Assembly: GCA_034522055.1 (NCBI GenBank)
Contig: JAXHLS010000006.1
Coordinates: 420,116-484,115 of the forward strand
Direction: 5' to 3'
DNA length: 64,000 bases
Origin: Gammaproteobacteria bacterium
Lineage (GTDB): Bacteria; Pseudomonadota; Gammaproteobacteria; JAABTG01
Each line of letters begins with the position of its first letter. The first letter of the stretch is position 1. The position numbers were made by a program, and so were the translations under genes. Positions 19,399 to 59,233 of the stretch are shown in pieces. The notes below the pieces were generated by a model, which made no database searches, was not told the origin of the DNA, and saw only the letters and a program-made list of their open reading frames with translations.

Positions 19399-19492
19399 GA
19401 GACCGGCCCCTGCACCGTGTCGGTGCATCCGCGGCATTTCTGCCCCACGGAGGTCGAGACCCTGCTGGGAGATCCCACCAAGGCCAAAGGGA
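19399..19492 (+). pseudogene. Degenerate relic of a gmd 3' end
   Basis: gagaccggcccctgcaccgtg...cacggaggtcgagaccctgctgggagatcccaccaaggccaaaggg aligns with gmd codons ETGACIV...[16 protein letters not shown], with many mismatches. Confidence 0.7.
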
Positions 19493-19746
19493 AAGGATGC
19501 ATGGCTTGCACAGTTCTCGTCTCTGACGGGTTTTGATTCTAGTTCCGGCATGTGGCCGTATAATGATACGGGCCGGTGCGTGGTTGCTCGCTCTAAGGGG
19601 TATGGCTTTAGACAGATCGTATGACAGTAGGTGTCATACCGCTGCCGTAGACTCCGCCGCCGTCAGGCCGGAAGGCCGCGGAAAGAAGCAGAGCCGGGTG
19701 ATTACGCCCGTTGGGCTTAACAGAACATGCGAGGGGTGAATTAGTG

Positions 19747-20844
19747 ATGGGTGGGAATAGAAAGAAGGCGCTGATAACGGGCGTGACGGGCCAGGACGGG
19801 GCATACCTCGCCGAGTTCCTGTTGGAGAAGGGCTACGAGGTCCATGGCATCAAGCGCCGGGCGTCGTCCTTCAATACGGACCGTATTGACCATCTCTACC
19901 AGGACCCCCACGAGACGGGGCGGCAGTTCGTGCTCCACTACGGGGACCTGACGGATTCCACCAACCTCATTCGCATCGTCCAGGAGATCCAGCCGGACGA
20001 GATCTACAACCTGGGGGCCCAGAGCCACGTGGCGGTGTCCTTCGAGAGCCCGGAGTACACGGCGGACAGCGTGGGCCTGGGGGCGTTGCGCATGCTGGAG
20101 GCCATCCGCATCGCCGGGCTAACGGACAAGGCTCGCTTCTACCAGGCCTCCACCTCGGAACTCTACGGCCTGGTGCAGGAGGTGCCCCAGAAAGAGACCA
20201 CGCCCTTCTACCCGCGCTCGCCCTACGCGGCGGCCAAGCTCTATGCCTACTGGATAACGGTGAACTACCGCGAGGCCTACGGCATGTATGCCTGCAACGG
20301 CATCCTGTTCAACCACGAATCACCCGTGCGCGGCGAGACCTTCGTCACCCGCAAGATCACCCGCGCCCTGGCCCGTATCCACCTGGGGCTCCAGGACACC
20401 CTGTACCTCGGCAACATGGATGCCCTGCGGGACTGGGGCCATGCCAAGGACTACGTGGAAATGCAGTGGCTGATGCTCCAGCAGGAGGTGCCGGATGATT
20501 TCTGCATCGCCACCGGGGTGCAGTACTCGGTGCGCCAGTTCGTGGAGCGCGCCTACTCGCACCTGGGCAAGGCCATCCGCTGGGAAGGGCAGGGGGTGGA
20601 CGAGAAGGGCTATGACACCGAGACGGGGGCGTGCATCGTGGCGGTGGACCCGCGCTACTTCCGCCCCACGGAGGTGGAGACCCTGCTGGGGGACCCCACC
20701 AAGGCCAAGGAGAAGCTGGGCTGGACGCCAAAGATCACCTTCGACGAGATGGTGACGGAGATGATGGAAAACGACCTGCAACTGGCCAAGCGCGATGCGC
20801 TGGTGAAGGAGGCGGGGTACCGGGCGTTTGATTATCACGAGTGA
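19747..20844 (+). CDS. gmd: GDP-mannose 4,6-dehydratase (copy 1)
   Basis: Met13 of ORF 19711..20844. [39 protein letters not shown] and full-length Gmd-like sequence. Confidence 0.95.
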
Positions 20845-20914
20845 GGCGCGCCGTGCCGCGGCATGGCCGGGTCAGTTCGCGCCCAAGGGCGCCCCTACGG
20901 GTTGAGTTGATTCC

Positions 20915-21856
20915 ATGAACAAAGACGCACGCATCTATGTAGCCGGCCACCGCGGCCTGGTGGGGTCGGCCATCGTCCGGGCTTTGGAGGCCGGGGGGTA
21001 TGGCAACATCATCATCCGCACCAGCAGTGAGCTGGACCTCAAGGACCAGGCGGCGGTGCGGGCCTTCTATGCCGCCGAGGCGCCGGACTACGTGTTCGTG
21101 GCCGCGGCCAAGGTGGGGGGGATCCTGGCCAACGACACCTACCCGGCCGAGTTCCTCTACGACAACCTGATGATCGAGGCCAACCTCATCCATGGTGCCC
21201 ACGAGGCCGGGGTGCAGAAGCTGCTGTTCCTGGGCAGCACCTGCATCTACCCCAAGCTGGCGCCCCAGCCCATGAACGAGGACGCCCTGCTCACGGGCCC
21301 CCTGGAACCCACCAACGAGTGGTACGCGGTGGCCAAGATCGCCGGCATCAAGCTGTGCCAGGCCTACCAGAAGCAGTACGGGTCGCGCTTCATCTCCGCC
21401 ATGCCCACCAACCTCTACGGCCCCGGGGACAATTTCGATCTGGAGAAGTCCCACGTCATGCCGGCGCTCATCCGCAAGTTCCACGAGGCGAAGGTGAACG
21501 ACGCCGGCGCGGTAACGGTATGGGGCACGGGCACGCCGCGGCGCGAGTTCTGCCACGTGGACGACTGCGCCGCGGCCTGCCTGTTCCTGATGGAGCACTA
21601 CGACGGCTACGACTTCGTCAACATCGGCGTGGGGGAGGACATCACCATCCGCGAGCTGGTGGAGATGGTGCAACGGGCGGTGGGCTTCGCGGGCGAGGTG
21701 CTGTGGGACACCACCAAGCCCGACGGCACGCCGCGCAAGCTGGTGGACGTGGGGCGCCTCCATGCGCTGGGCTGGCGGGCGCGCATGCCCTTGGAGGAGG
21801 GGGTGCGTTCCACCTACCAGTGGTTCCTGGAGCACCAGGGGGGTTACCGGGGGTGA
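20915..21856 (+). CDS. fcl: GDP-L-fucose synthase
   Basis: 313 aa. [17 protein letters not shown] Rossmann start and Fcl/WcaG-like sequence. Directly downstream of gmd. Confidence 0.93.
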
Positions 21857-22057: not shown

Positions 22058-22348
22058 ATGGATGAAACGGATTTCGAGTGGGACGACGTAAAGAGTCTTG
22101 AGAATGAGCGTAAACACGGAATTTCATTTTATGAGGCCCAGTATGCCTTTCTCGACGAGCGCCGTGTAATCGCTCAGGACTTGTCTCATAGCCAAGGCGA
22201 GTTCCGTTACTACTGCTTTGGATTGGACAGGGAGGGCACCGGGGTGCTCACGGTGCGCTTTACGTTTCGCGCCGGACGTATCCGGATCTTCGGGGCGGGA
22301 TATTGGCGAAAAGGCAGAAAGGTGTATGAGCGAACGAATTCACTATAG
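22058..22348 (+). CDS. brnT: BrnT-family (DUF497) toxin
   Basis: Met20 of ORF 22001..22348. DFEWDDVKSLENERKHGISFYEAQYAFLD is the BrnT signature. Confidence 0.85.
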   Translation: MDETDFEWDDVKSLENERKHGISFYEAQYAFLDERRVIAQDLSHSQGEFRYYCFGLDREGTGVLTVRFTFRAGRIRIFGAGYWRKGRKVYERTNSL

Positions 22349-22580
22349 CGACGAACCACTGGGAGAGTTCGAGGTGGTTCCGGATTTCCTGCCGTCCCCA
22401 GATGAACTCGCGCTGAAGAGCCGTCGGACCAAGGTGACTATCTCCTTGAGTGCCGAGAGCGTGGCCTATTTCAAGGACGCTGCCAGAAAGCATCACATGC
22501 AATACCAGAAGATGATCCGGCAGCTGCTGGATGAATACGTGGCTCGGCAGAAGGAGGCAGATAAGCGTAGACATCGGTGA
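22326..22580 (+). CDS. brnA: BrnA-type antitoxin
   Basis: Met37 of ORF 22218..22580. Overlaps the brnT end. C-terminal RHH-like KVTISLSAESVAYFKDAARKHHMQYQKMIRQLL. Confidence 0.8.
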   Translation: MSERIHYSDEPLGEFEVVPDFLPSPDELALKSRRTKVTISLSAESVAYFKDAARKHHMQYQKMIRQLLDEYVARQKEADKRRHR

Positions 22581-22929
22581 CCGGCTCGCGCTCCCGGCAC
22601 ATAGATGTCCAGTGGTTCCTGGAGCGCCAGGACGCCACCTGTACTTGTTTAGTGAGAGTGCTGCGGGGTGAGTCCGCCAGAAGGGCGGAGTTGTCATCTG
22701 TGAACGTCGTTAGCCTTCCTCGGCATGACCCCTGGTAGGCTGCCGCGGCTTCGCGATTTTCAGTCCTTATTAGGTTTGCATAAGATACAGGCAATATTCG
22801 CACCATATGTACCCATCCCCCTGAATTATATTGAGTATCAGATCCCTTCACTGCTGCGCTCGCGGTTCCCTGGTCAATGAGTGTAAGAAATTCCGACACC
22901 CGAAGTCGGTTTCGGGGCTCAGATTAATC

Positions 22930-22968
22930 GCCGTGGGGGCTCGGCTCCTACGGGTGGGTTCGATTCGC
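22930..22968 (+). other. Unoccupied homing site of intron family A (hairpin + TCCTA^CGGGTGGGTTCGATTCGC)
   Basis: gccgtgggggctcggc-tccta|cgggtgggttcgattcgc equals the 5' flank of the introns at 30791 and 51782 joined to the 3' flank at 32710. Confidence 0.8.
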
Positions 22969-23004
22969 GATGCAGGAGCCAGCCCGCTGGCCGATTGGTC
23001 GGTT

Positions 23005-23306
23005 ACGTGGACGACTGCGCCGCGGCCTGCCTGTTCCTGATGGAGCACTACGACGGCTACGACTTCGTCAACATCGGGGTGGGGGAGGACATCACCATCC
23101 GCGAGCTGGTGGCCATGGTGCAGCGGGCAGTGGGCTTCGAGGGCGAGGTGTTATGGGACACCACCAAGCCCGACGGCACGCCGCGCAAGCTGGTGGACGT
23201 GGGGCGCCTCCATGCGCTGGGCTGGCGGGCGCGCATGCCCCTGGAGGAGGGGGTGCGGGCCACCTACCAGTGGTTCCTGGAGCACCAGGGGGATTACCGG
23301 GGGTGA
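23005..23306 (+). pseudogene. fcl 3' fragment (last ~100 codons)
   Basis: [35 protein letters not shown]...[12 protein letters not shown] aligns to fcl 21553-21856 with substitutions. No 5' part. Confidence 0.9.
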
Positions 23307-23631
23307 TGGGGCTGCCGGCGGGTCCGCTGCGCTTGACCTACCCTACGGACCTGGTCATGTTGGGGTTCGTTCCTCACCCCAACCTACGAGCTGCCCTTGG
23401 CAGCCGAGGGAAACTCGGGGCTTTGCGGGCGCGGATGTCGGTTGCCAAGAGTAACCGCCCTACGGGCCGCGTCAAGGCGCGTTCAAATTCGTCCCCGACG
23501 GATTTGTCCCTCGGGGAGAGGGGGCGAGTTGTTCGCTTCTCCTCTGGCTTGCGGGAAGCAGGGGATACTCGCATTGACACAAGTGGCCCCCGCTATAAAC
23601 TGACGTGCGGTCATAAAAGCAGGGGTGTCTA

Positions 23632-23862
23632 ATGCGTACTGTTCAATTCGTCGAAGCCAAAGCCAGCTTCTCCGCGCTCCTGGCGGCCGTCGAGGCCGGC
23701 GAAGAAATTGCCATCACACGCCATGGCAAGGTCGTGGCTCGCATCGTTCCCGACACGCCCCGCATGGCCGCAGACCTTTTCCGGCCTTTCTGGGGCGGGG
23801 AGGATGTCGATCTGGAGGCTCCGGCCGACGGTCCGCCGGAGCCTGCTCCCGAATTGGACTGA
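23632..23862 (+). CDS. Phd/YefM-type antitoxin
   Basis: 76 aa. MRTVQFVEAKASFSALLAAVEAGEEIAITRHGKVVARIVP is typical. The PIN gene follows after 1 nt. Confidence 0.8.
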   Translation: MRTVQFVEAKASFSALLAAVEAGEEIAITRHGKVVARIVPDTPRMAADLFRPFWGGEDVDLEAPADGPPEPAPELD

Positions 23863-23863
23863 C

Positions 23864-24258
23864 ATGCGCTACCTGCTGGACACCAATATCCTTATCGCTG
23901 CGATCAAGGGGGTGCCGCAGGTGCGTGAGAAGCTGGAGGCGACCCCACTTTCGGACATCGTTCTTTCGCCCATCGTCCTGGGTGAATTGGAGCATGGTGT
24001 GGAAAAGAGCCAACAGCTCCAACGCAATCGTGATCGCCTGACGAGGGTCGTCGAAGGCCTGCCGCTCATCCCACTGGATGCCCGGGCCAGTGAACACTAC
24101 GGCGTCGTCCGGGCGAAGCTGGAGCGCCAGGGGATTCCCATCGGGCCAACGATTATTGGATTGCCGCCCAAGCTCTATCTTTGGGTGTGGTGTTAGTTAC
24201 CGACAACGTGGGGGAGTTTTCCCGGGTGCAGGGGCTGTCGGTGGAGAACTGGCTATAG
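23864..24258 (+). pseudogene. vapC: VapC (PIN) toxin with a frameshift near 24140
   Basis: MRYLLDTNILIAAIKG... in one frame (ORF ends 24196). The expected C-terminus [37 protein letters not shown] is in the +1 frame, ending at TAG 24256-24258. Confidence 0.8.
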
Positions 24259-24267
24259 TTTCTACAT

Positions 24268-24569
24268 TCTCGCACCTGGACAAGGCCATCCGCTGGGAAG
24301 GGCAGGGGGTGGACGAGAAGGGCTATGACAGCGAGACGGGGGCCTGCATCGTGGCGGTGGACCCGCGCTACTTCCGCCCCACGGAGGTGGAGACCCTGCT
24401 GGGGGACCCACCAAGGCCAGGGAGAAGCTAGGGTGGACGCCGCGCATCACCTTCGACGAGATGGTGGCGCCCACTGTCGGCAGAGCTGATGGAGAACGAC
24501 CTGCAACTGGCCAAGCGCGATGCGCTGGTGAAGGAGGCGGGGTATCGGGCGTTTGATTATCACGAGTGA
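24268..24569 (+). pseudogene. gmd 3' fragment (from ~codon 285), frameshifted
   Basis: [48 protein letters not shown] then indels. Carries the 13-nt insertion gcgcccactgtcggcagagct-type. Native stop at 24567-24569. Confidence 0.9.
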
Positions 24570-24724
24570 GGGGGTGGTCCCCCCCTCACCCCGGCCCTCT
24601 CCCCCCGAGGGGGGAGATGGAGTATTTGTTGGGCTCCCCCCCTCACCCTGGCCCTCTCCCCCCGAGGGGGGGAGAGGGAGTATTTGTTGTTCACGTACGG
24701 CACACAAGGTGCTACTTTAAGTGC

Positions 24725-24797
24725 GTGAAGACCTTCTCATGGGATTCAGCCAAAAACGATTGGCTCATGGCCGAACGGGGTGTGTCCTTCGAGCGGG
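24725..24797 (+). pseudogene. BrnT-like toxin, 5' part (interrupted by IS21)
   Basis: VKTFSWDSAKNDWLMAERGVSFER, identical in layout to the intact copy at 39187. Ends at the IS21 insertion point. Confidence 0.85.
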
Positions 24798-25071
24798 TGT
24801 AGCTGGCTGTAAAAACCCGCGCATATCTGGCGAAGGATTGATTGCCAGGCCAACCAGTCGCTGAGCCGGCAGGCGTGCGGCGGCAAGCAACCGGTGACAA
24901 GAGTGCCGGAATCGGGTAGATGAAGAGGGGCCGTTGAGACAGGTGCGATACCGGGTGTAATTGACTTGGCCGTCGACCCCGGTATCGCACCCCGGGCCGT
25001 GCAGAGCACGTGCCCGCACACTATTTCTCGTTTTCCCCTGACAATCAAGTCCTCATCGGCCTGGATCGCCG

Positions 25072-25389
25072 ATGGAGAACCCTGCACGCCTGTACAACTG
25101 CGCCCGTTGTCATCGTCAGGTGATGATTTGCAGTGGCTGTGACCGCGGCAACATCTATTGCCCTGAGGGGTGTGCGCAGGCGGCACGAAGCGCGTCTCTG
25201 CGGGCCGCCGGCTGGCGCTACCAGCAGAGCCGCAATGGCCGGCACAAGCATGCCGCGCGGCAACGCCGCTACCGGGCGAGAAGGCAGAAAGTGACGCATC
25301 AGGGTTCCCCGGCCCCGTCCCCTCATGATCCACTACCCCCGTTCCGGCGAGGCCGGCTGGCCGCCGCGGTGCGGATGGCGCGCCGATGA
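25072..25389 (+). pseudogene. IS21 passenger: Cys-rich Arg-rich zinc-ribbon-like ORF, frameshifted in this copy
   Basis: 105 aa here versus 153 aa in copy 2 (56228..56689). [26 protein letters not shown] cysteine pattern. Confidence 0.6.
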
Positions 25390-25548
25390 GGGCGCACATT
25401 CACTGCCACTTCTGCGGCCGTGAGTGCGGGCCCTTCCTGCGTACCGGCCCGCTTCATCGCGCCACCGCCGCCGCTGCGCTCGGAACAGTCACCCGACAGG
25501 GGCCACCAGGCGCCCGGGCTCAGCCCCCTTGAGCCGCCCGGCCACGAG

Positions 25549-27078
25549 ATGAGGAGAAACACATTGGCCATCAGTAAAGAACAAGAGGCGCAGATCCTGC
25601 GCTATCACTACGTCGAGAAGTGGCGGGTGGGCACCATTGCCAGCCAGTTGGGCGTACATCACAACGTCGTCAATCGGGTGCTCTCCCAGGCCGGCATGCC
25701 GAAGGTCGAGCGGACTGCGCAGGCGTCGATGATCGATCCTTATCTGCCGTTCATCACCGACACCCTGGCCCAGTTCCCCAGGCTCACCGCCAGCCGCCTC
25801 TACGGCATGGTGCGTGAACGGGGCTACCCCGGTGGCCCCGACCACTTCCGCCACCAGCTCGCCTGTTACCGGCCACGCCCCCAGCCCGAGGCCTTTCTGC
25901 GCCTGAAGACCCTCCCTGGCGAACAGAGCCAAGTCGACTGGGGCCATTTCGGCAAGCTCACCATCGGCCGCGCAACCCATGCCCTGATGGCCTTTGTCAT
26001 GGTGCTCAGCTACTCCCGGCGGATCTTTGTACGCTTCTTCCTCGGTGCCAAGATGGCCAACTTCCTGCGCGGCCACGAGGCGGCCTTCACCGCCTGGAAC
26101 GGCCTGCCCAAGGTCCTGCTCTACGACAACCTCAAAAGCGCCGTGCTGGAGCGCCAGGGTGAGGCCATCCGTTTCCATCCCACCTTGCTCGAGTTCGCCG
26201 CCCACTACCGCTTCGAGCCCCGTCCGGTGGCGGTGGCCCGGGGCAACGAGAAGGGGCGGGTGGAGCGCGCCATCCGTACGGTACGCGATAACTTCTGGGC
26301 GGCGCGCCAATGGACCGATCTCGATGATCTCAACGCCCAGGCCGAGGCCTGGTGCAACGGCTGGGCCATGGACCGGCCCTGTCCGGAGGACCGTGCCCTC
26401 TCGGTGCGCCAGGCCTTTGAGCAGGAGCCCCTGCTGGCGCTGCCCCATAACCCCTATCCCACCGACGAGCGGGTCGAGGTCCACATCGGCAAGACCCCTT
26501 ACGCGCGCTTCGAGCGCAACGACTACAGCGTGCCCCACACCCATGTGCGCCGCACCCTCACCGCTTCGGCCTCCCCCACCGAGGTGCGGATCCTCGACGG
26601 CGGGGACGTCATCGCCCGCCACCCGCGCAGCTACGACAAGGGCCGGCAGATCGAACAGCCGGAACACATCGAGGCGCTGGTCCAGATCAAACGCCAGGCC
26701 CGACATCATCGCGGCCAGGACCACCTGGCCCAGGCCGCACCGGCCAGCCGGCAGTTACTGGTCCAGGCCGCCGAGCGCGGCGACAACCTCGGCGCCATCA
26801 CCGCAGCCCTGCTGCGCCTCCTCGATGCCTACGGCGCCCCCGAGCTGGAAGCGGCCATCCAGGAGAGCCTGGCCCAGGGGGTGGCCCACCCCAATGGCGT
26901 GCGTATCGCCCTGCAGCGTAGACGCGAGGCGAGAAACCAGCCGCCCCGGGTGGGGGTACGCATCGACCACGCGCGTGCCAGAGGGCTGGTGGTACGCACC
27001 CATGATCTGGGCGGCTACGACGCCTTGCAGTCCACCCCGCCCGAAACCGAAGACGATACCCAGGAGGAGCCCAAATGA
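25549..27078 (+). CDS. istA: IS21 transposase IstA
   Basis: Met44 of ORF 25420..27078. N-terminal HTH ([34 protein letters not shown]), DDE core region, IS21-like organisation upstream of istB. Confidence 0.9.
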
Positions 27079-27848
27079 TCCCTAACGCATCCCTGAAAGA
27101 ACGGGCCACGGCCCTCAAGCTCCATGGCCTGCTGAGCCATTGGGAGGAGAGCGCCGACGCTGGCTGGGTCGAGTCCCTGATCCAGTGGGAAGAGGAGGAA
27201 CGCGCCCACCGCAGCCTCGAGCGGCGCATGAAAGGGGCGCGGCTGGGCCGCTTCAAACCCCTGGCCGACTTCGACTGGGGCTGGCCCAGCCGCTGCGACC
27301 GGGAACTGGTCAGTGAGCTGATGCGCCTCGACTTCCTCACCGAGGCGGTCAATATCATCCTGGTGGGACCCAACGGGGTGGGCAAATCCACCCTGGCCCG
27401 CAACATCGCCCATCAAGCGGTGCTGGCCGGCCACAGCGTCCTCTTTACCAGCGCCGGCCAGATGCTCAATGACTTGGCCGCCCAGGACGGCGACAGCGCC
27501 CTCAAGCGGCGCCTCGCCCGCTACGCCCGCCCTCAACTCCTGGTGGTCGACGAGGTGGGGTATCTCGCCTACTCCAATCGCCATGCCGATCTGCTGTTCG
27601 AGATCGTCTCCCGCCGCTACGAGGAGAAATCCACCCTGGTCACCACCAATCGGCCCTTCGCCGAATGGGGTGAAGTCTTTCCCAACGCCTCCTGCGTGGT
27701 CTCCCTCGTGGACCGGCTGGTACACCGCTCCGAGATCCTCACTATCGAAGGTGAATCCTACCGGCTCAAGGAGGCCAAGGAGCGACAGCAGCAACAGGCA
27801 CAGCGGCGCCGAGCCGCCGCCAAATCCAACAAAGGGGCCCAATCATGA
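27075..27848 (+). CDS. istB: IS21 helper ATPase IstB
   Basis: 257 aa. Walker [10 protein letters not shown], Walker [14 protein letters not shown] overlap with istA. Confidence 0.93.
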
Positions 27849-51161: not shown

Positions 51162-51162
51162 G

Positions 51163-51399
51163 ATGAAGGTAACGGAGTACTTTCTGGCGACGCGTCAGCG
51201 CCGTGATAGGGCAGCGATACAGGAAGCCTGGATTCGTCGAGTCATGGAGATGCCGGAAGAGGAAGAGCGACAGGCAGATGACCGGATTCGGCGTTGGGCT
51301 CGAGTGGAGGAAGCGGATGGAAAGGTGTTGCGGGTCGTGTTGCTGGAGGACGGCGAAACAGTCCACAACGCGTTCTTCGACCGGGGGTATAAGCCATGA
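51163..51399 (+). CDS. Small protein of the kind usually paired with DUF2283 (putative toxin-like partner)
   Basis: Met15 of ORF 51121..51399. ...RIRRWARVEEADGKVLRVVLLEDGETVHNAFFDRGYKP. I do not recall the family name with certainty. Confidence 0.5.
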   Translation: MKVTEYFLATRQRRDRAAIQEAWIRRVMEMPEEEERQADDRIRRWARVEEADGKVLRVVLLEDGETVHNAFFDRGYKP

Positions 51400-51593
51400 A
51401 GGTACAGTATTTCCAGGATACGGACACACTATACGTCGAGTTCCGAGGCGATGAGATCACCCAGACTAGGGACTTGGACGAAAACACCGTTCTTGATTTG
51501 AATGCTCTGGGGGACGTTTGTGCGTTGACCCTGGAGCATGCGAGCAAGCGGGCCGACTTGGGCCATCTCATTGTGGAAGGTATCGCTGCATAG
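51396..51593 (+). CDS. DUF2283-family small protein
   Basis: 65 aa. MKVQYFQDTDTLYVEFRGDEITQTRDLDENTVLDLNALGDVCALTLEHASKR is DUF2283-like. ATGA overlap with the upstream ORF. Confidence 0.7.
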   Translation: MKVQYFQDTDTLYVEFRGDEITQTRDLDENTVLDLNALGDVCALTLEHASKRADLGHLIVEGIAA

Positions 51594-51612
51594 CTCGTAG
51601 GCCACCTACCTG

Positions 51613-51745
51613 GTGAAGTTCCTCTACGACAACCTGATGATCGAGGTGAACCTCATCACATGGTGCCCACGAGGCCGGGGTGCAGAAGCTGCTGTTCCTG
51701 GGCAGCACTTGCATCTACCCCAAGCTGGCCCCCCAGCCCATGAAC
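51613..51745 (+). pseudogene. Internal fcl fragment (paralogue of 29661-29795) with a 1-nt insertion
   Basis: (V)[14 protein letters not shown] then a frameshift (catcacatggtgcc versus catccatggtgcc). Homology ends at cccatgaac. Confidence 0.88.
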
Positions 51746-52300
51746 TCATTCGCAAGAATCGCCGAGGGGGCTCGGCTCCTAGTGCGTCCGTGGAGGCGCA
51801 TTTTCTGCACGGTGAGAGTCCGTGTCGGGGTAAGCCAAGGCCCCGTAGTCGAAGGTAACTGCGTCGTCGCGAGGCGGGGTGGAGAGCAACCGGAGGCGAA
51901 CTGGCGGTCCGTAGGATGACGAACTCGATTCGGCGGTACGGGACGGCGAGCCCGCTAGGAGAAGGTGAAGCCTGAAAATCATCGGATGCGCTGGGATTGG
52001 CGTGGAAAGCGACATTCGGGTCCCCTCCGTGGTTGGAGACGGAACGCTGGGAAGGAAATGCGAGAGAAGCGGGGAGACCTGACCGCCGTGGTGACGGTGG
52101 GCAGGAGTCAGAGCCTTCGTAGTACTGAACGGTTCTGCTGCGGTCATGGCGAGGTGCTGCGGAAACGCGGACCCAAGAGCTGGAGGGCGTCCTCCGCCTA
52201 AAACCGTGGGTGGTGCCGGGAAAGCGCGAAGAACAGAAATCGCGCCGAGGGAAGGGAGGCAGGAAGGTGGATGGGTGAAGTCCGGAGGAGGTGAGCGCGT

Positions 52301-53614
52301 ATGCAAAGGGTCGAGAGTGTCTCGCAAGAGGCTAAGCCAGACTCGTCCAACCCGGTGGAATGGCCGTGGGTGGACCGCACGATCTGGACGGAGCGCATGT
52401 TGGCGGCGCTGGGTAACGGCGTCCAAGGGACGAAGTGGTTCAGTCTGATCGACAAGGTGCATCGCCCCCAGACCCTGGAACGGGCGTGGCAGGATGTGCG
52501 GGCCAACCGGGGTTCAGCGGGGGTGGATGGCCAGAGTGTGCAGCGTTTTGAGGCCCATGCCGAGCGGTATCTGGCGGAGTTGGGAGAGGCGCTGGGAATT
52601 GGACGGTACCGACCGGATGCGGTGCGTCGGGTGGAGATTCCGAAGGGGACAGGGACGCGTCCCCTGGGCATTCCGACGGTGAAGGACCGGATTGTGCAGG
52701 CGGCGATGAAGCGGGTGCTCGAGCCGATTTTCGAGCACCAGTTTTTGCCGATGAGTTACGGGTTTCGCCCGGGTCGCGGGTGCAAGGATGCGCTGCGGGA
52801 AGTGGATGGGCTGGTTCGGGAGGGCTACACCCATGTGGTGGATGCCGACCTGGCCCAGTACTTCGACACCATCCCGCACGAAGCGTTGATGGCCCGGGTC
52901 GAGGACCGGATCAGCGATGGTCGGATCCTCGACCTGCTGCGCGCCTGGTTGCGCCAGGACGTGGTGGCGGAGATAGCGCGCTGGACGCCGACCCGGGGCT
53001 CGCCCCAAGGGGCGGTGATCAGTCCGTTACTCGCGAATCTGTACCTGCACGGGCTGGATGTACACATGACCCAGCGCGGCTATCGGATGGTTCGGTATGC
53101 TGACGACCTCGTGATCCTGTGTGCCAGTCCGGACGAAGCCCAGGAGGCGCTGCAGGAGTTGCGGCACTGGGTGGAGGCCAATGGTCTGCAACTGCACCCG
53201 GAGAAGACCCGTGTGGGGGATTGCCGGCAGCCCGGGGAAGGCTTTGAGTTTCTCGGGTACCGGTTTGAAGCGGGACGGCGGTGGGTACGCAAGAAGAGCC
53301 GCAAGGCCCTTTACGACCGGGTCCGGGCCAAAACCCGGCGCAGTCGTGGGGATTCGCTGGCGCGGATTGTGGCCGACCTGAACCCGATGCTGCGTGGCTG
53401 GTTCGTGTATTTCCAGCACGCGCACCCGTGGACCTTTCCTCGCGTGGACGGTTTTGTCCGACGTCGATTACGGGCGCTGTTGCGCAAGCAGCAGAAGCGC
53501 CCGGGAGCGGGTCATTGTCAGTCCGACCATCTCCGCTGGCCGAACGCGTTCTTCGCTGCGGCTGGGCTTTTCACCATGACCGAAGCCCGGACGTTGGCGA
53601 GTGTTAGCGGCTGA
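52301..53614 (+). CDS. Intron A2 reverse transcriptase/maturase (last 3 codons replaced by IS21 sequence)
   Basis: 437 aa. One substitution in the track versus A1 (GSGRY to GIGRY). C-terminus ..RTLASVSG versus ..RTLASQSR. Confidence 0.88.
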   Translation: MQRVESVSQEAKPDSSNPVEWPWVDRTIWTERMLAALGNGVQGTKWFSLIDKVHRPQTLERAWQDVRANRGSAGVDGQSVQRFEAHAERYLAELGEALGIGRYRPDAVRRVEIPKGTGTRPLGIPTVKDRIVQAAMKRVLEPIFEHQFLPMSYGFRPGRGCKDALREVDGLVREGYTHVVDADLAQYFDTIPHEALMARVEDRISDGRILDLLRAWLRQDVVAEIARWTPTRGSPQGAVISPLLANLYLHGLDVHMTQRGYRMVRYADDLVILCASPDEAQEALQELRHWVEANGLQLHPEKTRVGDCRQPGEGFEFLGYRFEAGRRWVRKKSRKALYDRVRAKTRRSRGDSLARIVADLNPMLRGWFVYFQHAHPWTFPRVDGFVRRRLRALLRKQQKRPGAGHCQSDHLRWPNAFFAAAGLFTMTEARTLASVSG

Positions 53615-53739
53615 GTAAATCCGCGCATAAATGGCGAAGGTCGCAGTCGCGGGTTCGGGCGGCGTGACTCGGCCTCGGCGCGGATAGGTCGCCTCGAGTC
53701 AAGCCCGGTCACGCCGCCGGGGTGGGCTTAAGGGTCGGC

Positions 53740-53916
53740 TCAGAAGGTCAAGTCATCGTCGTCGACTTCAAAGGTGGTTATGCGGTCTTGTTGCATGAGT
53801 TCGACCAGCTGCCGATCGTATCGGCTCCAGATGGCATCGCGGAGTTCGTCGATAAAGTCATAGATCGCCAATGCCTGCTCTGGCGTCCAGTCGTCCGGTA
53901 TCGGGGGATGGGTCAT
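53740..53916 (-). CDS. Small conserved ORF downstream of istB (copy 2)
   Basis: MTHPPIPDDWTPEQALAIYDFIDELRDAIWSRYDRQLVELMQQDRITTFEVDDDDLTF. Same length as 27845..28021. Confidence 0.45.
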   Translation of the reverse strand: MTHPPIPDDWTPEQALAIYDFIDELRDAIWSRYDRQLVELMQQDRITTFEVDDDDLTF

Positions 53917-53918
53917 GG

Positions 53919-54686
53919 TTAGGCTCCTTTGTTGGATTTGGCGGCGGCTCGGCGCCGCTGTGCCTGTTGCTGCTGTCGCTCCTTGGCCTCCTTGAGCCGG
54001 TAGGATTCACCTTCGATGGTGAGGATCTCGGAGCGGTGTACCAGCCGGTCCACGAGGGAGACCACGCAGGAGGCGTTGGGAAAGACTTCACCCCATTCGG
54101 CGAAGGGTCGGTTGGTGGTGACCAGGGTGGATTTCTCCTCGTAGCGGCGGGAGACGATCTCGAACAGCAGATCGGCATGGCGATTGGAGTAGGCGAGATA
54201 CCCCACCTCGTCGACCGCTAGCAGTTGAGGGCGGGCGTAGCGGGCGAGGCGCCGCTTGAGGGCGCTGTCGCCGTCCTGGGCGGCCAAGTCATTGAGCATC
54301 TGGCCGGCGCTGGTAAAGAGGACGCTGTGGCCGGCCAGCACCGCTTGATGGGCGATGTTGCGGGCCAGGGTGGATTTGCCGACCCCGTTGGGTCCCACCA
54401 GGATGATATTGACCGCCTCGGTAAGGAAGTCGAGGCGCATCAGCTCACTGACCAGTTCCCGGTCGCAGCGGCTGGGCCAGCCCCAGTCGAAGTCGGCCAG
54501 GGGTTTGAAGCGGCCCAGCCGCGCCCCTTTCATGCGCCGCTCGAGGCTGCGGTCGGCACGTTCCTCCTCTTCCCACTGGATCAGGGACTCGACCCAGCCA
54601 GCGTCGGCGCTCTCCTCCCAATGGCTCAGCAGGCCATGGAGCTTGAGGGCCGTGGCCCGTTCTTTCAGGGATGCGTTAGGGATCAT
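53919..54686 (-). CDS. istB: IstB helper ATPase (copy 2)
   Basis: 255 aa, Walker [10 protein letters not shown]. Two codons shorter than copy 1. Confidence 0.92.
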   Translation of the reverse strand: MIPNASLKERATALKLHGLLSHWEESADAGWVESLIQWEEEERADRSLERRMKGARLGRFKPLADFDWGWPSRCDRELVSELMRLDFLTEAVNIILVGPNGVGKSTLARNIAHQAVLAGHSVLFTSAGQMLNDLAAQDGDSALKRRLARYARPQLLAVDEVGYLAYSNRHADLLFEIVSRRYEEKSTLVTTNRPFAEWGEVFPNASCVVSLVDRLVHRSEILTIEGESYRLKEAKERQQQQAQRRRAAAKSNKGA

Positions 54687-56211
54687 TTGAGCTCCTTTTG
54701 AGTGTCGTCTTCAGTTTCGGGCGGAGTGGACTGCAAGGCGTCGTAGCCGCCCAGATCATGGGTGCGTACCACCAACCCCCTGGCGCGCGCGTTGTCGATG
54801 CGTACCCCCACCCGGGGCGGCTGGTTTCTCGCCTCGCGCCTACGCTGCAGGGCGATGCGCACGCCGTTGGGGTGAGCCACCCCGTGGGCCAGGCTCTCCT
54901 GGATGGCCGCTTCCAGCTCGGGGGCGCCGTACGCATCGAGGAGGCGCAGCAGGGCTGCGGTGATGGCGCCGAGGTTGTCGCCGCGCTCGGCGGCCTGGAT
55001 CAGCAACTGCCGGCTGGCCGGTGCGGCCTGGGCCAGGTGGTCCTGGCCGCGATGATGTCGGGCCTGGCGTTTGAGCTGGACCAGTGCCTCGATGTGTTCC
55101 GGCTGTTCGATCTGCCGGCCCTTGTCGTAGCTGCGCGGGTGGCGGGCGATGACGTCTCCGCCGTCGAGGATCCGCACCTCGGTGGGTGAGGCCGAGACGG
55201 TGAGGGTGCGCCGCACATGGGTGTGGGGCACGCTGTAGTCGTTGCCCTCGAAGCGCGCGTAGGGGTCTTGCCGATGTGGACCTCGACCCGCTCGTCGGTG
55301 GGATAGGGGTTATCGGGCAGCGCCAGCAGGGGCTCCTGCTCGAAGGCCTGGCGCACCGAGAGGGCACGGTCCTCCGGGCAGGGCCGGTCCATGGCCCAGC
55401 CGTTGCACCAGGCCTCGGCCTGGGCATTGAGGTCATCGATGTCGGTCCATTGGCGGGCCGGCCAGAAATTATCGCGTATCGTGCGGATGGCGCGCTCCAC
55501 CCGCCCCTTCTCGTTGCCCCGGGCCACCGCCACCGGACGGGGCTCAAAGCGGTAGTGGGCGGCGAACTCGAGCAAGGTGGGATGGAAGCGGATGGCCTCA
55601 CCCTGGCGCTCCAGCACGGCGCTTTTGAGGTTGTCGTAGAGCAGGACCTTGGGCAGGCCGTTCGAGGCAGTGAAGGCCGCCTCGTGGCCCCGCAGGAAGT
55701 TGGCCATCTTGGCACCGAGGAAGAAGCGTACAAAGATCCGCCGGGAGTAGCTGAGCACCATGACAAAGGCCATCAGGGCATGGGTTGCGCGGCCGATGGT
55801 GAGCTTGCCGAAATGGCCCCAGTCGATCTGTCCCTGGTCGCCGGGCAGGGTCTTCAGGCGCAGAAAGGCCTCGGGCCGGGGGCGTGGCCGGTAACAGGCG
55901 AGCTGATGGCGGAAGTGGTCGGGGCCGCCGGGGTAGCCCCGTTCACGCACCATGCCGTAGAGGCGGCTGGCGGTGAGCGTGGGGAACTGCGCCAGGGTGT
56001 CGGTGATGAACGGCAGATAAGGGTCGATCATCGACGGCTGCGCAGCCCGCTCGACCTTCGGCATGCCGGCCTGGGAGAGCACCCGATTGACGACGTTGTG
56101 GTGTACGCCCAACTGGCTGGCAATGGTGCCCACCCGCCACTTCTCGACGTAGTGATAGCGCAGGATCTGCGCCTCTTGTTCTTTGCTGATGGCCAATGCG
56201 TTTCTCCTCAT
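54683..56211 (-). pseudogene. istA: IstA transposase (copy 2) with a 1-nt deletion near 55260
   Basis: Split into ORFs 55000..56340 and 54683..55231. Copy 1 reads cccttacgcgcgc where copy 2 reads ccctacgcgcgc. Confidence 0.88.
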
Positions 56212-56227
56212 CTCGTGGCCGGCCGGC

Positions 56228-56689
56228 TCAAGGGGGCTGAGCCCGGGCGCCTGGTGGCCCCTGTCGGGTGACTGTTCCAAGCGCAGCAGCGGCGGTGGCG
56301 CGATGAAGCGGGCCGGTACGCAGGAAAGGTCCGCACTCACGGCCGCAGAAGTGGCAGCGAATGGGCGCCATCATCGGCGCGCCATCCGCACCGCGGCGGC
56401 CAGCCGGCCTCGCCGGAACGGGGGGTAGTGGATCATGAGGGGGCGGGGCCGGGGAACCCTGATGCGTCACTTTCTGCCTTCTCGCCCGGTAGCGGCGTTG
56501 CCGCGCGGCATGCTTGTGCCGGCCATTGCGGCTCTGCTGGTAGCGCCAGCCGGCGGCCCGCAGAGACGCGCTTCGTGCCACCTGCGCACACCCCTCAGGG
56601 CAATAGATGTTGCCGCGGTCACAGCCACTGCAGATCATCACCTGACGATGACAACGGGCGCAGTTGTACAGGCGTGCAGAGTTCTCCAT
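56228..56689 (-). CDS. IS21 passenger: Cys-rich, Arg-rich zinc-ribbon-like protein (intact, 153 aa)
   Basis: [25 protein letters not shown] ... CHFCGREC. Located between the IS end and istA in both copies. Confidence 0.55.
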
Positions 56690-57110
56690 CGGCGATCCAG
56701 GCCGATGAGGACTTGATTGTCAGGGGAAAACGAGAAATAGTGTTTGGGCTCGTGCTCTGCACGGCCCGGGGTGCGATACCGGGATCGACCGCCAAGTCAA
56801 TTAGACCCGGTATCGCACCTGTCTCAACGGCCCCGCTTCATCTACCCGATTCCGGCACTCTTGTCACCGGTTGCTCGCGGCCGCCCGCCAGCCGGCTCAG
56901 CGACTGGTTGGCCTGGCAATCAATCCTTCGCCAGATATGCGCGGGTTTTTATAGCCATCTACAGCGAGCCAATCCCGATGAGGTAACCACCGACTGGAGA
57001 GCCGTGTGCGGGAGAACCGCATGCACGGTTCGGAGGGCGGGGAGGGTCACTCCTTCCCGACCCCTATCGGCGGGTTCCGGGGACAGGGTTCCGGGGTTCC
57101 GGGGTTCCGG

Positions 57111-59102
57111 GTAGAGTAGAGAGCAGGCCCTAACGCCCGTAGGTCCGGCTTAGCGGTTCCCGCCCCTTTCGTTTGGCGGTGCCTAAATAGCCGGGCCGTA
57201 GCCACCAGGGCCAGCCCTCCCTCATCAAACCGTGCATACGGTTCTCCCGTACACGGCTTTCCGATGTGCTTCACGCCAAGGCATGCGCTGAGCGCCAGCC
57301 TGCTTTGTGGGATAGCTTGAGTAATCCAAGGGCGTCGTGGAGGTGGGCGTAGGGAAAGCGTTCGTAACCGCGCGTGCGAGTGCGCACTTTGTGACGCCGC
57401 CGCAGTTGGGTACGCACGCGTTCCTCAGTGAACCACCGGACGCGTCCGAAAGCCTTGGTGCAGTTGCCGTAGTGGAAGTAGCCCGACCAGCCGCGTAGCA
57501 CTTGGTTGACTTCCGTGATCATACGCGGCATCGGCACCGGGGTGCGGCGCCGCGCGATGAGTTCCTTGATGCGCGCCTTGATCCTTCGTTCGGCGCGGCG
57601 GCTCGGCTCAACGTGAGGGTAGCCGTTGCCGGTTCGTCGGCTGCGTGCCCATTTGATGCTGAAGCCAAGAAAGTCGAACGCCTGTCGGCGGGCATCGACC
57701 ACGTGGGTTTTCTCCCGGTTGAGCGTCAACTCCAGGCGTGTCAGCACCGTCTCAAGCACCGCCATGGCCGGCGCGGTGTCCCCACGACACAGAATCACGG
57801 CATCGTCAGCGTAACGCACGAGGCGCGCCCCTAACCGCCGTTCCAAGTCGTGCCGTTCCCAAATCCGGTCCAGCAGATGTAGATAAAGATTGGCTAGCAG
57901 CGGGGAAACAACCCCGCCTTGCGGCGTCCCTTTCCGATTCCCTTTACCGCCACTCGGGCGTTGCTTGCCTCGCCCATCCTCTTCGATGACCGGGGCCTTG
58001 AGCCATTGCTGAATGAGGGCGAGGACGCCCCCATCGGCAAGGCGCTCGGCAACCACGGCCATGAGCTTGGCGTGCGGGATCGTATCGAAATACTTCGATA
58101 GATCCGCATCGATGATTTGGGTCTTTCCCTGAAACAGACCGTCGGTGACGGCCTTCACCGCATCATGGGCCGAGCGCTGCGGGCGAAATCCATAGGAGTG
58201 CTCGCAGAAATCAGCCTCGAAGATCGGCTCCACCAGCAGCTTGAGCGCCATCTGTACGATCCGATCCCGGATTGTGGGGATCCCCAATGGGCGCTCACTG
58301 CCATCCGGCTTGGGTATCCAGACCCGACGCACGCCGTCCGCGCCGTACGTCTTCTGCTCCAGTTCCCGTTGCAATTCCGCCAAGTAGGCGTCTTTTCCGA
58401 CCCCCGCCTCGATGGCCTCACAGGTCACACCATCGATTCCTGGCGCGCCCCGATTGGACCTGACACGATCATAGGCGTGACCGAGAGTGTCTGCCCGATA
58501 GACCTTGTCATACAAGGCGTAGAAGCGAAACGCCGGCTCTTGCTTGGCCTTGACGTAGAGCTTCCTCTGCAGCGTCCTGATCTTTTCCGGAGTTGTTAGC
58601 GACATCGCCGCAATCTCCTGACCCTCTGCGTTTCGGTTGCGTGCACAAAGTAGGGTCCCTTCCCTCAGGTCGGGTTATGTTGTCCCAGACCCTCAATCGG
58701 TACTATGAACCCCTCCGACTCCCACGACGGTCGATGACGACTTCGGACTGGCCTTATACGCCACCGTCGGCAGTTCTCACCTGCCACCGCCGCGGGCCTC
58801 CCGCACTGGGACCAATCAACTTCCACCACATGCCACCCGTACTACCCCGGAAGACTCAGTGGGACGCTCTCGTCGTCTCCTCCCACCAACAGCGGCCTTC
58901 CCCGACTGTCCACCGGATCGGCATCTTCACTTTGTTCACGAGGCTACATCTCGGTTCGCTTGCGCTGCGGCCTGCGGTTTTGCATCTACGTAACTTACGA
59001 CCCCCGGTTACCCGGACGCCGCTCCGCGACACTACAAAGGTGTACGAGCAACTCCTTTGGCGGGACTCTAACCCGCTAGTTAATCAGCCTGTTACGGCAT
59101 AC
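57111..59102 (-). mobile_element. Group II intron B3 (1,992 bp), intact
   Basis: Constant offset of 15,889 nt from B1 for both ends and for the RT ORF. Flanked by ggttccgg | ... | ggacagtttacc. Confidence 0.88.
57271..58605 (-). CDS. Group II intron reverse transcriptase/maturase (family B, copy 3)
   Basis: 444 aa, a few substitutions relative to 41382..42716. Confidence 0.92.
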   Translation of the reverse strand: MSLTTPEKIRTLQRKLYVKAKQEPAFRFYALYDKVYRADTLGHAYDRVRSNRGAPGIDGVTCEAIEAGVGKDAYLAELQRELEQKTYGADGVRRVWIPKPDGSERPLGIPTIRDRIVQMALKLLVEPIFEADFCEHSYGFRPQRSAHDAVKAVTDGLFQGKTQIIDADLSKYFDTIPHAKLMAVVAERLADGGVLALIQQWLKAPVIEEDGRGKQRPSGGKGNRKGTPQGGVVSPLLANLYLHLLDRIWERHDLERRLGARLVRYADDAVILCRGDTAPAMAVLETVLTRLELTLNREKTHVVDARRQAFDFLGFSIKWARSRRTGNGYPHVEPSRRAERRIKARIKELIARRRTPVPMPRMITEVNQVLRGWSGYFHYGNCTKAFGRVRWFTEERVRTQLRRRHKVRTRTRGYERFPYAHLHDALGLLKLSHKAGWRSAHALA

Positions 59103-59233
59103 GGACAGTTTACCTAACCTGTCAGGGGCGGCCGAGCGAAGGGCTCGGGAGAAGCTGGGTTGGACACCGAGGATCACCTATGACGAGCGGGTGACCCGAC
59201 TGTCAGCGTCCGGGTTGACGCTGTTTTCATGCA

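Follow-up and report, generated by a model that had tools for sequence, protein, structure and literature searches.

Alternation of type II toxin-antitoxin modules with partial gmd and fcl copies in a gammaproteobacterial array that may have grown by recombination and addiction

Insertion of restriction-modification (RM) complexes with long target duplication was reportedly described by Nobusato et al. in 2000. In this arrangement, the closest known concept for the locus described here, a small killing module is flanked on both sides by long direct repeats of host DNA, and neither a transposase nor an integrase is present; an invade-amplify-release cycle was proposed in which the repeats permit amplification and release (Furuta, Abe & Kobayashi 2010, PMC2853133). 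Sedentary chromosomal integrons and clusters of attC sites lacking integron integrases (CALINs) are long arrays of small unrelated cassettes, rich in toxin-antitoxin (TA) modules that are thought to prevent cassette loss, with group IIC introns lying antisense at cassette boundaries. Integrative islands that accumulate in tandem at the 3' ends of tRNA or protein genes do so through an integrase, and the element brings a replacement 3' end. The sugar-pathway genes rml, gmd/fcl and gnd bordering O-antigen and capsule loci are recombination spots, where ordinary exchange replaces. In this work, a 64,000-nucleotide stretch of a gammaproteobacterial genome (GenBank assembly GCA_034522055.1, contig JAXHLS010000006.1, positions 420,116 to 484,115; hereafter the window) was analysed computationally. 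It contains an array of ~40 kb, adjoining a cell-surface sugar gene cluster, in which type II TA modules alternate with partial copies of gmd (GDP-mannose 4,6-dehydratase) and fcl (GDP-fucose synthase). With middling confidence, we favour the explanation that the array, which borders a horizontally exchanged polysaccharide locus, accreted by recombination and is stabilised by addiction, and that it is not an integron.

The gmd and fcl pieces were located by self-BLAST and by BLAST of the intact gmd-fcl region against the window. Besides two intact gmd genes (gmd1 and gmd2, both with a full-length GDP_Man_Dehyd domain, Pfam E-value 1e-158) and one intact fcl, there are 13 further gmd pieces, starting at 19384, 24269, 29413, 35321, 37298, 38383, 40372, 43242, 44722, 47744, 50928 and 59148, plus 48763-48796, and seven fcl pieces, starting at 23005, 29651, 30676, 32727, 38880, 45005 and 51603. 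All pieces listed in an earlier sequence-only reading of this DNA were recovered within ~15 nt, and the 34-nt gmd scrap at 48763 was added to them. The gmd pieces are 81-97% identical to gmd1, and their 5' breakpoints fall at no fewer than eight different places (nt 20202, ~20285, ~20420, 20556, ~20615 in five pieces, 20709, 20785 and 20791; nucleotide positions within gmd and fcl are given as window coordinates of the native gmd1-fcl copy). Because of this range of identities and breakpoints, the copies are not the result of one recent amplification, as the sequence-only reading had also concluded; near-identical head-to-tail copies with one common junction, the mark of recent tandem amplification, were not found in the array, where there is a unique TA module per interval. 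Nine gmd pieces end at the native stop codon or at most 10 nt short of it, the internal exceptions being those at 19384, 40372, 48763 and 59148. Past the stop codon, most tails lead into one of two sequences, the native gmd-fcl spacer or a variant where a repetitive extragenic palindrome (REP) has taken the place of almost all of fcl; in the variant, the last ~20-60 nt of fcl are kept together with the natively following REPs. REP hairpins of the GTAG/CTAC type lie behind most tails, and the same REPs also occur outside the array (2691-2729, 3849-3883 and 5391-5434).

Fifteen type II TA modules, 14 of them distinct, were identified with Pfam: three BrnT/BrnA, five Phd/PIN, two DUF5615/DUF433, and one each of VapB/PIN, PIN/Rv0623-like, RelE/HTH, YoeB/Phd and DUF4258/DUF2283. 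In all-against-all BLASTP comparisons the toxins are at most 39% and the antitoxins at most 51% identical, save for a duplicate BrnTA pair (TA-3 and TA-9) at 98%. The modules are two-gene operons with their own upstream regions, ten on the plus and five on the minus strand, and 14 of the 15 lie directly behind a tail block. Among the 18 tail blocks and 15 TA modules there is only one TA-TA adjacency (probability of at most one by chance, 1.6e-4); a single TA module occupies each of 12 intervals, two modules share another, and three intervals contain introns only. The TA units consist of TA genes, REPs and gene fragments, and neither a transposase nor an integrase belongs to them; the IS21 elements and introns came in secondarily, lying inside TA-3 or intron Y2 or at junction hairpins. 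A regular unit of junction motif, gene tail, REPs and TA module had been proposed from sequence alone; its core, the TA module behind a gene tail, is borne out by position and alternation, but the motif stands before five tails only, the others being preceded by two other elements or by none.

Decay of TA genes was found only in copies with an intact counterpart in the array, or, for TA-12, with a same-family relative. The IS21-split brnT of TA-3 is backed by the intact TA-9, and a 417-bp deletion (scar at 29638) took a paralogue of TA-14 out of the unit at 29386-29795. The remaining cases are scraps of Phd (32 nt, 40478-40509) and of BrnT (59817-59862) and the toxin pseudogene of TA-12, the only relative of which is the same-family TA-4, with antitoxins 32% identical. 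The modules with no such backup appear intact, having full-length ORFs, no internal stops and Pfam matches. Decay limited by redundancy in this way would fit the prediction from addiction.

The sugar genes on the left place the array at the edge of a polysaccharide locus. The G+C content of the window is 60-67%, but it is 43-45% in the block at 8-16 kb (8000-16000). According to Pfam assignments, this low-G+C block and its flanks belong to a polysaccharide locus, where besides the rml genes and a Wzx-type flippase there are genes for glycosyltransferases, a GH5 enzyme, a Wzy-like protein and five sulfotransferases. The block itself, which encodes the GH5 enzyme, the Wzy-like protein, sulfotransferases and a glycosyltransferase, was probably acquired horizontally as a locus for a sulfated polysaccharide. 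It is followed downstream by gmd1 and the intact fcl, so that gmd-fcl and rmlB-wzx flank the block in the manner of genes bordering O-antigen and capsule loci; unlike in ordinary border recombination, where replacement leaves no stacked partial copies, the events here appear additive. The closest gmd proteins (88-89% amino acid identity) are from Sedimenticola, Sulfuriflexus and other Gammaproteobacteria. In an array-free relative of another species (L081) a single gmd-fcl pair stands in the plain order glycosyltransferase-gmd-fcl-Bac_transf, with nothing inserted.

The history of the copies was read from the distribution of their differences over codon positions 1/2/3. Natural gmd genes differ mostly at third positions (e.g. 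10/3/40 between L081 and another natural locus, L083). Compared with gmd1, differences were 6/3/33 for gmd2 and 4/5/21, 1/1/12 and 0/0/4 for the fragments starting at 35321, 38383 and 40372, respectively; gmd2 and the 38383 fragment differ by 1/2/13. Since these three fragments are truncated and cannot function, their third-position bias implies that they diverged as working genes and were cut down recently, and, taken with gmd2, that at least three functional alleles fed the array. Around gmd2, the pieces resemble longer gmd copies that deletions later shortened, rather than short arms. The distal tails at 43242, 44722, 47744 and 50928 are 89-92% identical to gmd1, with indels, and show little codon-position bias against each other and against L088, a locus from another metagenome assembly (e.g. 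6/6/9 and 6/7/11); these are pseudogenes of long standing. Identity to gmd1 drops along the array (rho -0.65, p=0.017), not monotonically, the youngest-looking pieces lying just right of gmd2.

Five tails start at gmd nt ~20615-20627, each behind a 26-nt junction element (motif A), and have diverged nearly neutrally from one old truncation that is also present in three other metagenome assemblies. Six tails (24269, 38383, 43242, 44722, 47744 and 50928) and the remnant at 59148 carry a 12/13-nt insertion (CCCCCTGTCAGCG / GCCCACTGTCGGCA) at the equivalents of 20756-20758, which would add the residues PLSA and shifts the frame in five of the six. A natural gmd allele was rejected as its source, the insertion being absent from 86 natural gmd loci and 21 close homologues, and it could be the footprint of an excised element. 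The idea that indels restore the frame of the tails was also dropped, as a stop codon arises between them and leaves the gene unreadable. Because the insertion and motif A with its breakpoint coincide only imperfectly, the tails are mosaics. In one of them, at 47744, all diagnostic sites agree with the 43242 tail plus its intron flank as far as an identical stretch of 31 nt, and beyond it with the 44722 tail plus its downstream spacer, which points to recent homologous exchange between tails; a tail-by-tail crossover and a one-sided 5'-exon co-conversion by homing of intron X fit it equally well. Duplications within the array include a tail-REP-BrnTA segment (92-99% identity) and intron X with a tail (98.5%). 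The suggestion that each unit is an independent integration thus holds insofar as the copies are not one amplification, but not for the six tails that share the insertion, or for the five that share a breakpoint and a 26-nt motif and go back to one old truncation.

A second site in the window shows the same topology on a smaller scale. At 2.7-8.1 kb, an intact rmlB, the first 166 codons of wzx and a DUF6883/DUF4926 pair with REP on the left are followed on the right by a 5' fragment of a FitA-like gene, rmlB from codon 88 and an intact wzx; the FitA-like fragment comprises the first 25 codons and forms an in-frame fusion with the right-hand rmlB fragment. The arms are 95.6% (rmlB, 7/2/23) and 93.6% (wzx, 4/2/25) identical without indels, both flanking genes being whole, which indicates that one arm is an allele that evolved working elsewhere or as a second working copy. 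To judge from its layout, the site is the product expected of a single crossover with a circle carrying an rmlB-wzx segment, or of an equivalent additive double exchange. The native FitA-like ribbon-helix-helix gene (61-216) is solitary: it lies immediately upstream of rmlA, no toxin partner is visible, and the window begins just before it.

Comparison with other genomes yielded further examples of this topology and of the junctions. In an unrelated metagenome-assembled genome (MAG; L006, gmd 80% identical), positions 9686-14716 hold gmd, ORF6N, an fcl head, MntA/HepT, an fcl head, MntA/HepT and a full fcl; the heads span 53-117 nt from the start of fcl, and upstream of gmd there is a copy (290 nt, 87%) of the end of fcl with its downstream sequence, giving a mirrored mini-array. 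No comparable array was present in any of 84 gmd loci (one genome per species; best match 80% at the amino acid level), L006 being the only one with partial fcl repeats and TA modules. In the metagenome contig L085, homologues of TA-5 and TA-7 lie 250 bp apart, and between them stand motif A, a 30-nt piece of gmd tail and motif B (in the window within 59103-59195); in the window the two modules are 5.7 kb apart, with gmd2 and TA-6 between them, and the two L085 blocks differ in divergence (93.3% versus 97.3%). In L088-L090 motif A is joined to a gmd tail at the same breakpoint as in the window, within a block of ~725 bp (6246-6970 in L088) made of motif A, a decayed gmd tail, a spacer and a decayed fcl head. 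The L088 fcl breaks at nt 21277, within 3 nt of the breaks at window positions 29795 and 51745, and the sequence beyond differs in all three. This block lies amid unrelated genes (DUF1254/DUF1214, porin-like, lipoprotein), with no gmd within 6 kb upstream. Homologues of TA-5 elsewhere (L093-L097) sit cleanly between core genes, with no flanking repeats and no motif. Set against such clean insertions, the rmlB/wzx site and L006 show the pattern to be unusual but recurrent. The scan of metagenomes for motif A returned one contig, L085; the strict pattern missed L088-L090 (one base different), which were found through the tail protein. A scan of viral contigs gave no match, and a plasmid collection contained ordinary gmd genes only. 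Short database proteins resembling gmd tails proved to be mostly frameshifted or contig-end genes and were discarded.

We infer that the array could have grown through repeated addition. DNA of related genomes with the gmd-fcl 3' end, REPs and a different downstream TA module would have been added rather than substituted, anchored by gmd/fcl (and rmlB/wzx) homology through Campbell-type single crossover, double crossover or unequal exchange. TA addiction would disfavour replacement of the resident module by an incoming allele, so that survivors would be additive. Each addition would leave one functional gene and one redundant copy, and the redundant gmd/fcl would decay by deletions that stop at the neighbouring antitoxin or promoter, leaving a tail and REPs beside the next TA module; the bias towards 3' tails would follow if deletions may enter the end of the preceding toxin but not the promoter and antitoxin of the next module. 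Loop-out between direct repeats would remove a unique TA module and so be lethal, which would make the array a ratchet open to growth and shuffling without collapse, and the IIC-like introns and IS21 would have invaded later. Serial Campbell-type integration of circles, the mechanism put forward in the sequence-only reading, would leave exactly the topology seen at the rmlB/wzx site, but a single crossover of a circle, a tail-flanked double crossover and unequal exchange all leave the same product. The direct repeats that flank the modules measure 60-1400 bp, and the likeness to the long target duplication of RM modules lies in putative killing modules between long host repeats; unlike the single insertions described there, the cargo here is type II TA modules, 15 in series, and the same two genes supply all the repeats as partial copies, at least some of them allelic (third-position differences) and not the recipient's own target. 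As in tandem islands, there is a series of displaced 3' ends, one per element, with the intact gene at one end, and five tails share a breakpoint; unlike in islands, there is no integrase, most breakpoints differ, and the five shared-breakpoint tails come from one ancestor and were not repeatedly cut.

The boundaries of the tails carry short elements of their own. Motif A (TTACTTAATTCGCTGTACGGCACGCC; 5 copies versus 0 expected, all on the plus strand) precedes gmd nt ~20615 in the five window copies and likewise in L085 and L088-L090, and its left neighbours are of five or more kinds. Its conservation decays gradually, not sharply, at the left edge. Two other junction elements have 3 copies each versus ~0 expected; of these, the GGACAGACCACGGTTAA element precedes gmd2 and two gmd fragments and may be the native upstream region of the gmd2 allele. 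By inspection of the junction sequences, ~10 of 14 gmd copies (the 13 pieces and gmd2) have a junction element or an intron X copy at the left end. The bare core 10-mer CCGGGGACAG is not enriched in the window, and therefore only the longer elements were used as evidence. G-rich octamer runs (GGGGTTCC / GGGGACAG / GGGTATCG) that include the 3'-exon half of the intron X site were observed at the unit junctions 48790-48825, 57075-57110 and 28697-28745.

Three families of group II introns (X, Y and Z) were recognised with Rfam and Pfam, and intron ends were set by comparing filled with empty sites. Intron X (minus strand, GUAUG...CUCUAC) is inserted between GGTTCCGG and GGACAG, which is the left edge of motif A and its variants, and has empty sites in L085 and at window position 44677. 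Motif A conservation reaches ~8-10 nt past this insertion point, and motif A as the intron's 5' end was rejected by the filled and empty sites, the intron beginning at GUAUG, 6 nt left of the motif's YTTAC. Intron Y (plus strand, GUGCG...CCCCUAU) follows the hairpin GCCGNGGGGGCTCGGCTCCTA, with an empty site at 22930. The reverse transcriptases (RTs) of X and Y have 444 and 437 aa with RVT_1 and GIIM domains only and no endonuclease domain, and both introns insert right after palindromes, as group IIC introns do; RT domain content and insertion site suggest that they are IIC-like. All five intron X copies or remnants adjoin a gmd fragment on the 5'-exon side, and four of them have a TA module on the other side. 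An attC-specific lineage of group IIC lies antisense to the neighbouring cassettes and was proposed to help form cassettes (PMC3001079). Introns X and Y resemble this class in their ~440-aa RTs without endonuclease domain and in insertion after a palindrome, and intron X is likewise oriented against the neighbouring gene pieces; unlike there, the targets are array-specific hairpin elements and not attC or obvious terminators. The degenerate intron Z gives a strong Rfam match in D1-D4 (125 bits), and its 5' flank repeats GGGGNCAGCAGCGGCTTGGC, which is found before the gmd tail at 38367. The two IS21 copies are inverted relative to each other and 96.5% identical, and could invert the 25 kb between them; in the second, istA seems to be split (ORFs 54683-55231 and 55000-56340).

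Several observations weigh against accretion by homologous and random illegitimate events, which do not predict the fixed end of motif A with its variable left neighbours, the fcl breakpoint at nt 21277 (±3) with three different right neighbours, or the end of the REP block at native position 21943 in four units. The 3' flank AAACCGGGGACAG recurs at three TA modules that are unrelated to one another (TA-6, TA-8 and, in L085, the homologue of TA-5), although the 10-mer alone is not enriched. The tails have drifted 10-14% neutrally yet remain undeleted, several gmd copies functional in one genome would also give third-position bias, and TA function and lethality of loss are attributed to the modules through family membership only. 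Fixed block ends with variable neighbours and long-surviving, drifting tails are thus ill explained, which keeps hairpin-directed and intron-mediated mechanisms alive; the former, which the sequence-only reading had not considered, is made conceivable by the fact that two IIC-like introns home into the junction motifs. One such explanation is a site- or structure-specific cassette system run by an enzyme encoded outside the window, either a tyrosine recombinase acting in trans or an HUH/RAYT-like nickase giving rolling-circle products with one fixed and one variable end; motif A, GGACAGACCACGGTTAA and the GCCGNGGGGGCTCGGC element would be the ends and the gmd/fcl tails a hitch-hiking target or arm. 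We consider it unlikely, despite the copy numbers of all three junction elements and their presence (or that of intron X) at the left of most gmd copies, the recurrence of the motif-tail junction in L085 and L088-L090 with unrelated genes upstream in L088, the common 3' flank of unrelated TA modules, and the GTAG/CTAC REPs, where in four units ...CCTACGAGC is directly followed by unit-specific sequence. The 64 kb contain no gene for a recombinase or nuclease; the elements are 20-48 nt long, without an attC core-site match in the pattern scan and not dif-like, GGGGACAG, the short core, shows no enrichment, motif A fades at its left edge, GGACAGACCACGGTTAA may be native to the gmd2 allele, and shared ancestry with homologous spread accounts for five neutrally diverged copies of motif A. 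It seems similarly doubtful that tails and hairpin elements are working parts of an integrase-less cassette system in which a portable piece of the highly conserved gmd/fcl, bearing a hairpin at its fixed end, serves as attachment site, small TA units excising and integrating beside gmd in different genomes with the help of RecA or of a hairpin nuclease or reverse transcriptase acting in trans. If it were true, TA addiction would make each capture irreversible, and the presence of the motif A-tail block in at least four independent assemblies despite 10-14% drift would indicate element-level selection. Ectopic recombination between IIC-like intron copies, or RT run-on into the 5' exon, could also have joined TA flanks to gmd/fcl fragments, in analogy to the role in cassette formation proposed for IIC-attC introns (PMC3001079). 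The flanks of the intron X copies, the position of both intact families exactly at junction hairpins, the fixed intron-proximal and variable distal ends of the motif A tails, and the 47744 tail, which is identical to the intron X1 flank from the intron into the tail and differs on the 3'-exon side from the first base, all agree with this. It is nonetheless distinctly improbable: most junctions are without an intron, perfect empty sites would need precise intron loss, motif A is conserved beyond the insertion point, no intron was seen at the rmlB/wzx site (Rfam at gathering threshold) or in L006 (ORFs and Pfam only), which have the same topology, and homing into pre-existing hairpins explains the association equally well.

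Purely in situ growth, by unequal crossing-over of the gmd-fcl 3' region in one lineage with independent TA insertion at a REP hotspot downstream of fcl and no imported arms, would account for the duplications within the array, for the derived insertion that six tails share and natural gmd loci lack, and for TA homologues that elsewhere insert cleanly between core genes with no duplication. We nevertheless hold it to be quite unlikely, as the truncated fragments at 35321, 38383 and 40372 and the rmlB/wzx fragments diverged as working genes (synonymous-type differences, few or no indels), unequal crossing-over would duplicate the TA modules too, yet 14 of 15 are unique, and independent insertion leaves one TA module per interval unexplained. 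An overlooked sedentary chromosomal integron or CALIN is suggested by the richness in TA modules, the many small unrelated cassettes and the IIC-like introns lying against neighbouring genes, but is very improbable. No RYYYAAC...GTTRRRY pair 50-150 nt apart was found in the array by a pattern and fold scan, as distinct from the covariance model of IntegronFinder, and attC-like candidates that fold end to end occur only inside the RT gene of intron X. The ORF scan, which took in all ORFs >150 aa with coding-like codon bias, returned no Phage_integrase and assigned each scanned ORF to another family, and 19.4-62 kb leave no unassigned stretch as long as 900 nt. Both ends of the array lack intI and attI, the left being glycosyltransferase/gmd and the right IS and a sigma-54 regulator. 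This upholds the earlier statement that the array shows no intI, attI or attC. The repeat, moreover, is 60-650 nt of a housekeeping gene with REPs, and the cassettes have their own promoters and lie in both orientations. Scans of the window found no dif-like XerC/XerD sites (consensus with up to 3 mismatches), no tRNA, and no Rfam families other than group II introns; an identical att core at every junction was not seen, the breakpoints differing, and no recombinase was found in the window. A chimeric or mis-joined assembly is scarcely credible: near-identical repeats of 2-3.4 kb (introns 99.2-99.8%, IS21 96.5%) could mislead a short-read assembler, but the gene-tail repeats, each beside unique TA genes, are at 81-97% identity too diverged to collapse, the array lies within a 1.3-Mb contig, and independent assemblies (L085, L088-L090) reproduce the motif A-tail junction and the arrangement of TA, motif A, tail, motif B and TA.

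The coordinates of the features are collected in Table 1. Right of the array, the BrnT scrap (46 nt) is followed by a DDE_Tnp_1 IS (60116-61312, minus strand) and then by a sigma-54 activator (62043-63425) that looks core-genome.

Table 1. Features of the window, ordered by position; nt numbers refer to the native gmd1-fcl copy.
Feature	Position	Strand	Remarks
rmlA	230-1153		polysaccharide locus; Pfam; rmlC also present
rmlB, intact	2722-3798		Pfam
Second site: direct duplication 2984-4390 / 5679-7166 (rmlB 3' and wzx 5' parts)	2984..7166	+	flanks DUF6883/DUF4926 pair 4703-5280
wzx, Wzx-type flippase, intact	6669-8072		Pfam
Degenerate gmd fragment	19384..19493	+	gmd nt 20605-20714, 81%; upstream of gmd1; BLAST
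gmd1, GDP-mannose 4,6-dehydratase, intact	19747..20844	+	PF16363 full length, E 1e-158; 365 aa
fcl, sole intact GDP-fucose synthase gene	20915..21856	+	native REP cluster onward to ~22001
TA-1, BrnT/BrnA-like	22058..22580	+	Pfam
Intron-less hairpin element targeted by intron Y	22925..22975	+	GCCGTGGGGGCTCGGCTCCTA followed by CGGGTGGGTTCGATTCGC
fcl tail and downstream REPs	23005..23393	+	native 21555-21943, 96%; BLAST
TA-2, Phd/PIN	23632..24196	+	Pfam
gmd tail from nt 20556	24269..24569	+	13-nt insertion and 1-nt deletion
TA-3, BrnT/BrnA	24686..28648	+	toxin split by IS21 24798-28159 (istA 25420-27078, istB 27075-27848); near-identical to TA-9
TA-4, DUF5615/DUF433	28746..29322	-	Pfam
Motif A, gmd tail (20621-20834), fcl internal piece (21136-21280)	29386..29795	+	junction 29638 is the deletion scar of the TA-14 paralogue
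TA-5, Phd/PIN	30049..30662	+	Pfam; homologous block in L085
fcl fragment 21484-21545	30676..30738	+	BLAST
Intron Y1	30791..32709	+	RT 31310-32623, 437 aa, no En domain; after hairpin 30765-30790
fcl tail 21613-21856	32727..32970	+	90.6%; REPs after
gmd2, intact	33178..34275	+	96% to gmd1; 33/42 differences third-position; own upstream GGACAGACCACGGTTAA at 33070
TA-6, RelE/HTH (HigBA-like)	34652..35273	+	Pfam
gmd2-type upstream element and gmd fragment from nt 20202	35288..35963	+	REPs to ~36330
TA-7, Phd/PIN_3	36425..37110	+	Pfam; 97% block in L085
Intron X remnant, domains 5-6 only	37141..37297	-	
gmd tail, last 60 nt	37298..37357	+	REPs after
TA-8, VapB/PIN	37661..38340	+	Pfam
gmd tail from ~nt 20420, then REP and fcl end scrap	38383..38935	+	96.6%; 12/14 differences third-position; 13-nt insertion
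TA-9, BrnT/BrnA, intact copy	39115..39743	+	
Intron X remnant with internal deletions	39925..40328	-	
GGACAGACCACGGTTAA element, gmd internal fragment 20309-20417, 32-nt Phd scrap (TA-11-like)	40329..40509	+	
TA-10, PIN/Phd	40519..41147	-	Pfam
Intron X1	41222..43213	-	RT 41382-42716, 444 aa; between GGTTGCGG and GGACAG
Motif A and gmd tail with in-frame 12-nt (PLSA) insertion	43221..43483	+	REPs to ~43850
TA-11, PIN/Phd	43934..44601	-	Pfam
Motif A, gmd tail, gmd-fcl intergenic (to 20901), last 60 nt of fcl	44690..45064	+	
TA-12: HTH, DUF433 protein, broken PIN_10/DUF5615-like toxin	45141..46219	+	
Intron X2, internally deleted copy	46262..47715	-	
Motif A and recombinant gmd tail	47723..48034	+	5' half as 43242 tail; 3' half and intergenic as 44722 tail
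TA-13, PIN/Rv0623-like antitoxin	48047..48753	-	Pfam
gmd tail scrap, 34 nt	48763..48796	+	absent from the sequence-only reading
Intron Z, degenerate	48826..50800	+	D1-D4 48851-49097; RT split 49324-49710 / 49857-50765; ends approximate
Motif A and gmd tail to nt 20834	50907..51160	+	
TA-14, DUF4258/DUF2283	51121..51593	+	replaces gmd nt 20835 through fcl nt 21135
fcl internal piece	51603..51745	+	ends nt 21277, breakpoint (within 3 nt) as at 29795 and in L088
Intron Y2	51782..57067	+	split by second, inverted IS21 53602-56963
Intron X3	57111..59102	-	
Motif B (GGACAGTTTACCTAACCTGTC...) and degenerate gmd fragment 20709-20756	59103..59195	+	
TA-15, YoeB/ParE-like toxin and Phd antitoxin	59234..59736	-	right end of array

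Chromosomal TA modules are numerous in environmental bacteria, and their arrival and clustering outside integrons and classical islands are poorly understood. The use of non-attC junction hairpins by IIC-like introns at this locus bears on the role of introns in building cassettes. The accretion that we favour suggests a route that needs no recombinase, in which a housekeeping gene provides the landing homology and addiction turns allelic replacement into addition and shields the repeats. If general, such a route would explain pile-ups of TA modules at the borders of exchanged loci, e.g. O-antigen clusters, and would extend the idea of long target duplication from RM to TA systems; stacked partial copies of conserved genes would then mark ratchets elsewhere, of which L006 and the rmlB/wzx site may be the first hints.

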